Shown here: piece by piece, positions 61,611 to 64,000 of the stretch | How the letters are laid out: every line of letters starts with the position of its first letter | How positions within the stretch are numbered: position 1 is the first letter of the stretch | DNA from: Escherichia coli | GTDB taxonomy: Bacteria > Pseudomonadota > Gammaproteobacteria > Enterobacterales > Enterobacteriaceae | Assembly (NCBI RefSeq): GCF_036507355.1 | Contig: NZ_AP027877.1 | Direction: 5' to 3' (one strand) | DNA: 64,000 bases | The notes under the pieces: generated by a model | Told to the model about the DNA's origin: nothing | Seen by the model: the letters and a program-made list of their open reading frames with translations, nothing else | Database searches by the model: none | Translations under genes and position numbers: made by a program

Positions 61611-61654
61611 ACCTTACCTCATCAATCGCTTGTCGTTATATGTTGTGTTGTGCA

Positions 61655-61700
61655 CATCTATCCGTTTAGACGTCCAGATGTAAAGATGAAGGAAAAGCCG
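61655..61700 (-). promoter_or_regulatory. metF promoter with MetJ boxes
   Basis: AGACGTCT-like met boxes (tttagacgtccagatgtaaagatg) lie 50-90 bp upstream of the metF start. Confidence 0.6.
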
Positions 61701-62108
61701 AAGGGCGTCAACCGAAAAATGACCAATGATGGTGAGGAAAAATCAGGGAAGATGAATTTTCTTCATCTGTATATGGGAGTAGATAGGTTCTCTCGCATTA
61801 TCGCGTCGTGAAGTAATGAATAAATGCTTAAGCCATCGGCTGGAAATTTATTTAAATAAGAGTTAATTAATATTCACGACGGTGTTAGCTGAACACTTAT
61901 TTAAATAAAACAAATAGATACCATAATTTGCATTCATTACTGCATGTTTATTATTTGAACTACTTCAAACTATTAATAATTTTTCAAAAATTATGTTGCA
62001 GAGCAATTATGTATCCCCCACGATAAGTAGAACGTTCTACTAGAACGTTCTACTTATACAAAAAAGACTAATTCGCGCAGCTTTATGCGCTATTCGGGGG
62101 AAATCAGC

Positions 62109-63434
62109 ATGAGTCTGATGTCGAGTTTCGTGAAGTCACTTTCTAAATTATCGATGATTGGTCGCGCCCTAATGCTACCAATTTCGCTTCTGCCTGCCGC
62201 GGGGTTGTTACTCGCGTTCGGCGATAAATTCCATTTGCCGTTGATGATGAATGCGGGCGGCATTATTTTTGATAACTTGCCGATGCTTTTTGCTATCGGT
62301 TCCGCCGTAGGGCTGGCTTCTGAATCGGGAATTGCGGCGTTATCCGCAGCCGTTTCCGTTTTTGTCACCAATATCACCATCAGCACCGTACTTAGCATTA
62401 CGCCAGAAATGGCCGGGCAAGGCGGCAAATACGCGATGGTGGTGGGGATCCCAACACTGCAAATGGGCGTTTTTGGCGGCCTGATATGCGGGATTCTGGC
62501 GGCGTGGTGTTACAACCGTTTTCATACAATGCAATTGCCAGAATTCCTTGGTTTTTTCTCCGGAAAACGCTTTGTGGCTATCGCGACGGCTTTTCTCTCC
62601 TTCATTCTTGGCTTGTCACTGCCTTATGTCTGGCAACACATTCAGTCAGGAATCGATGCGTTATCGGTTATCGTTAATGGTAACAACCAGGCAGCATCAA
62701 CCTTTATTTTTGGTGTAACTGAACGGGCGCTCATTCCGCTTGGCCTGCACCACATCTGGTATCCATCGTTTTGGTATTCTTTTGGGGATTACACTACCCA
62801 TGCCGGGCAAATGATTCACGGCGATCAGACGATTTGGTTCAAGATGTTGGAAGAAGGGGTGAAATCATTTAGCAGCGACAGTTATCATGACGCTGGTAAA
62901 TTTATGCAAGGTGAATTCCCACTGATGCTGTTTGCCCTGCCTGCGGCGTGCCTGGCGATGTATCTGCTGCATGCACATATTGCCAAATCCTTCTCTGCGG
63001 GGCTTATTGACTATATTTCGTTTGGTATCCTGCCATCCTTTAATGGCTACGAAACCAACTTCCTGAGCGCCATTATCGTCGGCGTGCCAATGGCGGTGAT
63101 CTACTACTTCACCTTCCGCTTTGTTATTCGTCGTTTTGATGTAAAAACGCCTGGTCGCACCGAAACTACGGTTAGCGCTAATGATAAATCCGATGACGAG
63201 CTGGCAACAGAAATCATCACGCTGCTTGGCGGTCAGCAAAACGTTAAATCGGTAGGTTCCTGCATCACGCGTTTACGTCTGGAAGTCTCTGATAAAGAAG
63301 CGGTGGATCAGGATGGTCTGAATAATATTGGCGCCCGTGGCGTGGTTTTTGTCGGCGATAACGGCATTCAGGTAATTTTTGGCGCGCGAGCGCAATTTAT
63401 CGCGCAAACCATGTCGACGATGATCGGTAAATAG
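62109..63434 (+). CDS. PTS glucose/glucoside-family EIICB component (substrate unknown; alpha-glucoside-type suspected)
   Basis: 441 aa from MSLMSSFVKSL (the in-frame ATG at 62085 is less likely; GGGGGA SD sits before 62109); polytopic EIIC domain plus C-terminal EIIB with active-site Cys in GSCITRLRLEVSD; not expected upstream of metF in K-12. Confidence 0.8.
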   Translation: MSLMSSFVKSLSKLSMIGRALMLPISLLPAAGLLLAFGDKFHLPLMMNAGGIIFDNLPMLFAIGSAVGLASESGIAALSAAVSVFVTNITISTVLSITPEMAGQGGKYAMVVGIPTLQMGVFGGLICGILAAWCYNRFHTMQLPEFLGFFSGKRFVAIATAFLSFILGLSLPYVWQHIQSGIDALSVIVNGNNQAASTFIFGVTERALIPLGLHHIWYPSFWYSFGDYTTHAGQMIHGDQTIWFKMLEEGVKSFSSDSYHDAGKFMQGEFPLMLFALPAACLAMYLLHAHIAKSFSAGLIDYISFGILPSFNGYETNFLSAIIVGVPMAVIYYFTFRFVIRRFDVKTPGRTETTVSANDKSDDELATEIITLLGGQQNVKSVGSCITRLRLEVSDKEAVDQDGLNNIGARGVVFVGDNGIQVIFGARAQFIAQTMSTMIGK

Positions 63435-63515
63435 CCTTAAGATTACTCGATGTCAGAGGTTCTGGTCCCTGACCAGAACCTTCTTGCTATTTAAAGAATC
63501 AACGTTGTTCAGGGA

Positions 63516-64000
63516 GTGAGTTTGAAGAAAGTCAGCATAATTGATGTTGCTAAAAGAGCCGGAGTTTCCGTCTCTACCGTGTCGCTAGTGCTGCGCCAGA
63601 AAGGGAAAATCTCAGAGGCGACCATCGGGAAAGTTCATGCTGCTATTGACGAACTGGGCTACGTGCATAATGTTGCCGCCGCCAATTTACGTTCCCACAC
63701 TTCAAATCTTATCGGACTGATTTTACGTGATTTTAGCGATAGCTTTTCCATCAAAGTGATGGCTAGCATTGTTCAGGAACTGGAAGCCAAGGGCTATATG
63801 GTATTCCTTGGGCAACCACAGAACGAACATGAACATCTTGAACGTTGTTTACTTTCCTTCAAGCAACAAGGTGTTGCCGGAGTGATTTATCTGGCTTCCG
63901 ATGCGCATCGTGAAACCCTACCCACACTAATCCGCCAGTGTTCGCTTCCCCTTGTCGTCGCGTCACAAACGCCCATCAAAGATGAGTGCAACCTGGTGTT
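63516..64000 (+). CDS. LacI/GalR-family transcriptional regulator, N-terminal part (3' end outside window)
   Basis: HTH IIDVAKRAGVSVSTVSLVLRQKGKISEATIGKVHAAIDELGYVHNVAAANL; start at GTG 63516 or TTG 63522, preceded by an AGGGAG SD. Confidence 0.75.
   Translation, partial: MSLKKVSIIDVAKRAGVSVSTVSLVLRQKGKISEATIGKVHAAIDELGYVHNVAAANLRSHTSNLIGLILRDFSDSFSIKVMASIVQELEAKGYMVFLGQPQNEHEHLERCLLSFKQQGVAGVIYLASDAHRETLPTLIRQCSLPLVVASQTPIKDECNLV

Follow-up and report, generated by a model that had tools for sequence, protein, structure and literature searches.

The right end of a 64,000-nucleotide stretch of Escherichia coli DNA (assembly GCF_036507355.1, contig NZ_AP027877.1; the whole stretch is hereafter called the window) carries, beyond the metF gene, a gene for a glucose-family EIICB permease of the phosphotransferase system (PTS), followed on the same strand by the 5' part of a gene for a LacI-family regulator of the MalI subfamily. 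Our analysis indicates that the window very probably ends in a decaying, non-mobile copy of a chromosomal two-gene module, which lies in a gap between metF and metL that is known to be variable. The EIICB open reading frame (ORF) is 58 residues shorter than its intact homologues, a feature missed in the first-pass annotation of this DNA.

To describe the lesion, the EIICB gene of the window was aligned with the intact alleles of LHM10-1 (L001), Escherichia whittamii, L087 and L093. Compared with all four it lacks exactly 174 bp, in frame. The 58 residues that are gone correspond to residues 283–340 of the intact protein, which are retained in L087, L093 and L001 and align to residues 267–324 of E. 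coli PtsG. This segment holds the GITE motif (PtsG G295, T297 and E298), so that the transport domain encoded in the window is incomplete. In the pairwise alignment, L087 positions 1–5269 match window positions 57696–62964, and L087 positions 5432–6479 match window positions 62953–64000. The intact alleles contain two perfect copies of the 12-bp repeat TGGCGATGTATC, 174 bp apart and flanking the deleted stretch, whereas a single copy is left at the junction in the window, which is the signature expected of a deletion of the slipped-strand or microhomology type. Independent NCBI and Logan assemblies contribute 7 public contigs that encode the exact 441-amino-acid product, and a 441-amino-acid EIICB gene beside the identical regulator is also present on metagenome contigs in ENA. 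Over the segment, L087 and L093 share 99.0–99.5% identity with the window lineage, and they encode an intact 499-amino-acid EIICB together with the same 338-amino-acid regulator; of these two, L087 also shares the nucleotidase stub described below. On this evidence, we consider the deletion to be both real and recent.

The remainder of the gene is recognisable as an EIICB gene. Its best NCBIfam match, TIGR02002 (E 7e-132), is obtained as two stretches, the Pfam models PTS_EIIC (PF02378) and PTS_EIIB both match the called gene, and the EIIB domain scores 61.0 bits against TIGR00826 (cutoff 45.75). In a cryo-electron microscopy and molecular dynamics study of PtsG, T297 and E298 were the main hydrogen-bond partners of glucose, and the binding site was formed by HP1, HP2b, TM6 and the TM7-alpha3 loop (PMC11393339). 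With this segment gone, the protein should no longer bind sugar, and the topology of its transport domain should be disturbed. Because the sugar-binding core that contains GITE has been lost, the EIICB gene of the window is most likely non-functional and effectively a pseudogene.

The window edge cuts the regulator gene, and its continuation was read from L003 (GCA_047852605.1), which is 99.98% identical to window positions 52109–64000 (11.9 kb) and extends past them. After the edge come the remainder of the regulator gene, a minus-strand C-terminal stub (135–163 amino acids) of an UshA-like metallophosphatase/5'-nucleotidase, a 66-amino-acid stub of a hypothetical gene, and then metL, metB and metJ, with the metL start at the window-equivalent position of about 65280. 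The first-pass annotation had suggested that the sequence be extended downstream to look for metL and for a glycoside hydrolase; metL indeed lies about 1.3 kb past the edge, but no glycoside hydrolase precedes it. Neither a glycosidase nor a mobility gene is present in the complete gap of L003, L001 or L087, and a glycosidase is absent from that of L004 as well. LHM10-1 has a fuller gap, with an EIICB of 499 amino acids, a MalI-like regulator of 338, an intact nucleotidase of 517 on the minus strand and a hypothetical protein of 376. The last of these has no NCBIfam match, and its gene (L001 14054–15184, L086 4471–5601), on the strand opposite to metL, shares 37 bp with the 3' end of that gene. 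Past metJ, at L003 17545–18153, yiiX is broken into at least 2 ORF fragments and is intact in L087 (202 amino acids). Counting the EIICB deletion and the nucleotidase stub with the split yiiX, three genes have decayed in a stretch of about 8 kb.

E. coli shows at least five states of the gap between metF and metL. We searched 5,426 complete E. coli genomes (RefSeq) by megablast using window positions 61400–64000 as the query. A match was obtained in 5,425 of them, and in 5,417, including K-12, it covered query positions 1–357 only (window 61400–61756). The homology breakpoint at 61756 lies 146 bp upstream of the metF start and was found again by pairwise BLAST against L002, L086 and L001. In K-12 (strain RR1) metL is the next gene after metF, and the gap (348 bp) is empty except for a 201-bp filler resembling a repetitive extragenic palindromic (REP) element. 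A second state, with the nucleotidase and hypothetical genes only, occurs in 1,841 of the complete genomes, and a third, with all four genes, of which the PTS pair is 88% identical to that of the window, in 8 of them; the rest are K-12-like or have other contents. A fourth, 'GR 31 metL..metF', has been described in extraintestinal and avian pathogenic E. coli and comprises a Tsx-like gene and three UshA-like genes (PMC12928451). The fifth is that of the window, in which the PTS pair stands with stubs. The pair is thus polymorphic for presence and absence within E. coli. GR 31 occupies the same gap, and its UshA-like genes have the size (1,554 bp) of the nucleotidase gene that survives here as a stub; however, its content is a gene for a Tsx-like channel plus the three UshA-like genes, without any PTS or repressor gene (PMC12928451), whereas in the window lineage the PTS pair is present and the nucleotidase survives only as a fragment. 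The first three states and that of the window were aligned and share two breakpoints. Their fillers (201 bp in K-12, 214 bp in the nucleotidase-only state, and the inserted segment) are unrelated, with no homology detected even by short-word BLAST. No direct repeats were found at the boundaries in L003 or L001, and there is no tRNA gene; the flanks are metF and metL. The K-12 gap (L002 5358–5558) contains the REP-like palindrome GCCGGATTCGTCGTAAACGCTTAATCCGGCC in its filler. The K-12 annotation places a 44-amino-acid 'hypothetical protein' over the shared breakpoint, and its start is kept in the window (ATG 61701); because its C-terminus differs with each gap variant, this ORF is unlikely to be a real gene.

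What the first-pass annotation had observed here was borne out: metL does not follow metF as it does in K-12, since homology ends at 61756 and another segment follows; an AT-rich region precedes a plus-strand EIICB gene with the GSCITRLRL motif; a LacI-type repressor gene with no stop in its 159 codons runs off the edge; and neither the ORFs of the window nor the called genes of the whole gap include an integrase, a transposase or another mobility gene. Its family names, glucose-family EIICB and LacI-type regulator, hold by NCBIfam (MalI subfamily for the latter), and its description of the genes as accessory in E. coli agrees with our finding that K-12 and more than 99.8% of the complete genomes lack the pair.

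Allele divergence bears on the age of the segment. The window segment and the LHM10-1 allele are 88% identical and their flanks 97.7%, and the EIICB genes of the window and E. whittamii share 91.5% identity. Alleles within Escherichia differ by 8–13%, which argues that the segment is old within the genus. Between L087 (3916–7800) and the window lineage (L003), the inserted segment is 99.2–99.75% identical and metF, katG, metL and metB are 96.0–97.7% identical. That the segment is more alike than its flanks indicates a recent exchange by homologous recombination in the flanking DNA.

The intact module is widespread in Enterobacteriaceae. When one genome per bacterial species was scanned, 80 loci were recovered, each of them in Enterobacteriaceae or a close relative and with an EIICB 87–97% identical in amino acid sequence to the LHM10-1 protein. 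They include Kluyvera, Enterobacter, Citrobacter, Klebsiella spallanzanii, Leclercia, Lelliottia, Kosakonia, Atlantibacter, Buttiauxella, Cedecea and Pantoea. The gene directly after EIICB encodes a MalI-like regulator at all 80 loci (65–96% identity), and the 58-residue segment is retained by every one of the 80 orthologues and by the nearest E. coli alleles. When the flanking ORFs were clustered, the pair was found beside folD at 63 of the 80 loci, near cysS, ppiB and lpxH at 46 and near ybcI and purEK at fewer, all of these being housekeeping genes, and no conserved sugar-catabolic neighbour was detected at these loci, which argues that EIICB and its regulator form a self-contained two-gene unit. 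Placement between metF and metL was seen only in E. whittamii, which has all four genes in this gap, in Kluyvera species and in K. spallanzanii. The latter two carry an extra 1.4 kb, which encodes a LysR regulator and a carboxymuconolactone-decarboxylase-like protein. At the DNA level the Escherichia copy is nearest to that of Kluyvera (77–78% identity, against at most 75% for the others). In most genera the pair lies just downstream of folD and in Escherichia and Kluyvera next to metF; both encode folate one-carbon enzymes, a neighbourhood that is probably a coincidence.

The intact EIICB was compared with the characterised permeases of its family. PtsG (IICB-Glc; PDB 8QSR, 9HNP and 9SRX) has the same domain order, EIIC then EIIB with no EIIA, and is 42.6% identical to it over 458 aligned residues (E about 1e-101). 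The active-site Cys of PtsG is conserved in the intact EIICB, as are 8 of the 10 glucose contacts (E202, R203, H211, H212, T297, E298, F337 and S338). The protein nevertheless scores 419 bits against a cutoff of 647 for the PtsG equivalog (NF008301), 444 against 553 for NagE (TIGR01998) and 315 against 665 for MalX (NF007509). Its best family model, matched over the full length with an E value of 1e-169, is TIGR02002, which describes the glucose-specific PTS IIBC of the type of Bacillus subtilis PtsG and staphylococcal GlcA/GlcB; here no EIIA is fused. Expression of ptsG is controlled by Mlc, whereas this EIICB is instead paired with a LacI-type repressor. Such a pairing resembles the malI/malX-malY locus of K-12, in which a glucose-family EIICB gene likewise stands next to a gene for a LacI repressor of the MalI subfamily. 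However, identity is low (33% for MalX, 37% for MalI), the K-12 genes are divergent whereas here EIICB and regulator are co-directional in that order, and malY has no counterpart. The 338-amino-acid regulator encoded on L003 has a helix-turn-helix domain and a periplasmic-binding-protein-like core (PF00356, PF00532 and PF13377 match), the former being inside the window, and it narrowly passes the MalI-subfamily model NF007449 (325.2 bits against a cutoff of 310). With 37% identity to K-12 MalI, orthology in the sense of a shared regulon and operator was not supported, and it is opposed also by the differing operator arms and the missing malY partner. The intact module is most likely a distant paralogue of ptsG and malI-malX rather than an orthologue of either. 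Whole-word literature searches returned no description of this PTS pair or of the enterobacterial EIICB subgroup.

The leader of the inserted segment contains a perfect 35-bp palindrome in which two operator-like sites, each centred on AACGTT, overlap with their centres 13 bp apart. Across species, the tandem motif GTAGAACGTTCTAC followed by TA(A/G)AACGTTCTAC precedes the EIICB start in each of the 78 leaders of sufficient length; the other two, L057 and L062, are cut too short to show it. The operators of K-12 MalI are 16-bp palindromes of the GATAAAACGTTTTATC type, also centred on AACGTT (PMC5543585). The AACGTT-centred 16-bp layout is therefore common to both, but the arms differ (GTAGAACGTTCTAC here, GATAAAACGTTTTATC in K-12). 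By its conservation and by analogy with K-12 MalI, the palindrome is presumed to be the binding site of the MalI-like repressor. Upstream of it, the leader holds two copies of the AT-only palindromic motif TTATTTAAATAA (61848–61859 and 61897–61908, 49 bp apart), which may be a candidate protein-binding site. Past the operator-like sites, RNAfold predicted a small hairpin at the same place, 10–13 nt downstream, in nearly all of 75 distinct leaders. Its stems vary by genus (GCGCA/TGCGC, CAGCGC/GCGCT, GCAC/GTGC, ACGCG/CGCGT and GGGC/GCCC), changes that look like covariation, but its folding energy in the 75 leaders was no better than that of shuffled sequence (mean z -0.2). The EIICB ORF opens at an upstream in-frame ATG (62085), which we rejected as the start because the ATG at 62109 is conserved and has a GGGGG Shine-Dalgarno sequence in all homologues.

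From the comparisons above, we infer how the module would work and how it decayed. By analogy with PtsG and MalX, the intact permease, which has EIIC and EIIB and no EIIA, would receive phosphate from EIIA-Glc (Crr), import and phosphorylate a glucose-like hexose, and deliver a product that could enter central metabolism with no dedicated catabolic enzyme. The MalI-type repressor encoded by the downstream gene would bind the tandem AACGTT-centred operator of the leader and so repress the operon. The segment appears to pass from one lineage to another when the core genes on either side recombine homologously. In the lineage of the window, the UshA-like nucleotidase and hypothetical genes had already become stubs through an earlier 2.1-kb deletion; the 174-bp in-frame deletion between the 12-bp direct repeats then took residues 283–340 of the transporter, including GITE and the surrounding helices, and the deleted permease would no longer bind or translocate sugar. 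This lineage retains an intact regulator gene, operator and EIIB domain.

Several observations weigh against parts of this scheme. N215 and K257 of PtsG are replaced by Y and M in the intact EIICB, which leaves a glucose-like hexose as a presumed substrate. The protein scores below every NCBIfam equivalog cutoff, including that of its best model TIGR02002 (565 bits against 591.8). That the repressor binds the palindrome is suggested by conservation and by the analogy with K-12 MalI, and a consensus promoter scan gave 3 sites where 4.3 were expected from shuffles, none of them at the conserved operator. In addition, a shortened membrane protein may still be made, since the reading frame, the EIIB domain, the promoter region and the repressor have all been preserved.

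Four other explanations were considered. The first-pass annotation had read the region as a working sugar-utilisation island, made up of EIICB, a LacI repressor and a phospho-glycosidase encoded past the edge. Its gene families are correctly named, and glucose-family EIICB genes do stand beside a hydrolase or lyase gene in malX-malY, aglA-aglB and glvC-glvA, which counts in favour of such an arrangement. However, the complete gap holds no glycosidase in L003, L004, L087 or L001, the 80 species loci have no conserved sugar enzyme next to the pair, the extra genes of Kluyvera and K. spallanzanii are the LysR regulator and the carboxymuconolactone-decarboxylase-like protein, and the permease in the window is without its binding core. 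A working island is thus extremely improbable: the pair is accessory in E. coli, as had been said, but it is widespread and conserved in Enterobacteriaceae and occupies the same gap in E. whittamii and Kluyvera. Either presence of the genes in K-12 or their proving to be pseudogene fragments had been named as grounds for abandoning the island; the pair is absent from K-12, but EIICB is an in-frame deletion derivative that is in effect a pseudogene. It might still be argued that the 58-residue loss is tolerated and that this natural variant of EIICB continues to transport sugar, since the deletion is in frame, the rest of the sequence is free of further lesions, and the 441-amino-acid allele is the commoner form among contigs with this regulator. 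We consider this very unlikely. The missing 58 residues include the equivalents of G295, T297 and E298 and amount to roughly one hairpin arm and one transmembrane helix, the segment is kept in all 80 orthologues from other species and in the nearest E. coli alleles, and the loss of an odd number of membrane spans would change the downstream topology, including that of EIIB.

The segment could alternatively be a mobile genomic island, recently acquired by site-specific integration or transposition. Its presence/absence polymorphism, its GC content slightly below that of the window (0.48–0.49 in the coding part and 0.33 in the leader, against 0.519 overall), the location of the pair at another locus (folD) in most genera and the closeness of the Escherichia copy to Kluyvera DNA would all fit. 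Against this, there is no integrase, transposase, tRNA or flanking direct repeat, E. whittamii has all four genes in the same gap, the 8–13% divergence of Escherichia alleles makes the segment old, and the same two breakpoints recur in all the aligned variants, as fits replacement by recombination in metF and metL; we therefore give this explanation little credence. Assemblers can be misled by short direct repeats, and the 174-bp deletion might on that account be an assembly or sequencing artefact. The probability of this is practically negligible: the identical 441-amino-acid product is found on the 7 contigs from unrelated assemblies, the metagenome contigs carry a 441-amino-acid EIICB gene beside the identical regulator, and two 12-bp repeats 174 bp apart are well within read length.

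For the window itself, decay of a non-mobile module amounts to ordinary gene decay in a gap whose variability in E. coli was already on record, and it corrects any annotation of the ORF as a working PTS transporter (names in the style of the Prokaryotic Genome Annotation Pipeline would be 'PTS transporter subunit EIIC' and 'MalI'). It also points to a two-gene PTS module, 87–97% conserved in at least 80 enterobacterial species, with its own operator and no catabolic neighbour, that is apparently unstudied. A broader reading, which we put forward only tentatively, is that the intact pair is an uncharacterised and near-universal PTS of Enterobacteriaceae, perhaps for a hexose other than glucose (N215Y, K257M), that E. 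coli and apparently Salmonella have lost it, and that the window captures a late step of this loss. It is much less likely that the shortened protein serves as a membrane-tethered EIIB with a regulatory or phosphate-sink role.

The features of the right end of the window are collected in Table 1. The gene order there (yijF, yijE, katG, metF) is as in E. coli. A hairpin between the EIICB and regulator genes could act as a terminator or attenuator, and terminator-like sites in the region were no more numerous than in shuffles. No known RNA family was found in 61400–64000 at E values up to 1.

Table 1. Positions of the features at the right end of the window.
Feature	Position	Strand	Basis or remark
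katG	58211–60430	-	E. coli-like gene order
metF (methylenetetrahydrofolate reductase), conserved left flank	60720–61610	-	296-amino-acid ORF; named metF in matching E. coli records
metF upstream region common to all E. coli	61611–61756		Homology to K-12 and other variants ends at 61756
AT-rich leader specific to the inserted segment	61757–62108	+	GC content 0.327
Perfect 35-bp palindrome with two overlapping AACGTT-centred operator-like sites	62023–62057		Inverted-repeat match
Operator-like site GTAGAACGTTCTAC	62027–62040		Inside the 35-bp palindrome
Operator-like site CTAGAACGTTCTAC	62040–62053		Inside the 35-bp palindrome
Small GC hairpin of the 5' leader (GCGCA-GCTTTA-TGCGC)	62075–62090	+	RNAfold
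Shine-Dalgarno sequence GGGGG	62096–62100	+	After the hairpin
Glucose-family PTS EIICB gene, in-frame deletion allele (441 amino acids, 499 when intact)	62109–63434	+	NCBIfam, Pfam and allele alignments
Deletion junction, sole remaining copy of the 12-bp repeat TGGCGATGTATC	62953–62964	+	Alignment to L087
EIIB active-site Cys codon (Cys385 of the 441-amino-acid product, GSCITRLRL)	63261–63263	+	Aligns with PtsG C421
Hairpin (12-bp stem) followed by a T-rich tail, in the spacer from EIICB to the regulator gene; possible terminator or attenuator	63456–63482	+	Kept in LHM10-1
LacI-family, MalI-subfamily regulator gene, 5' part (159 of 338 codons, TTG start)	63522–64000	+	No stops; cut by the window edge

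To the left of the gap, window positions 50000–61750 (11.7 kb) reach at most 98.8% identity to any of the 5,426 complete genomes, which argues that the window strain belongs to an E. coli lineage that has no close relative among them.

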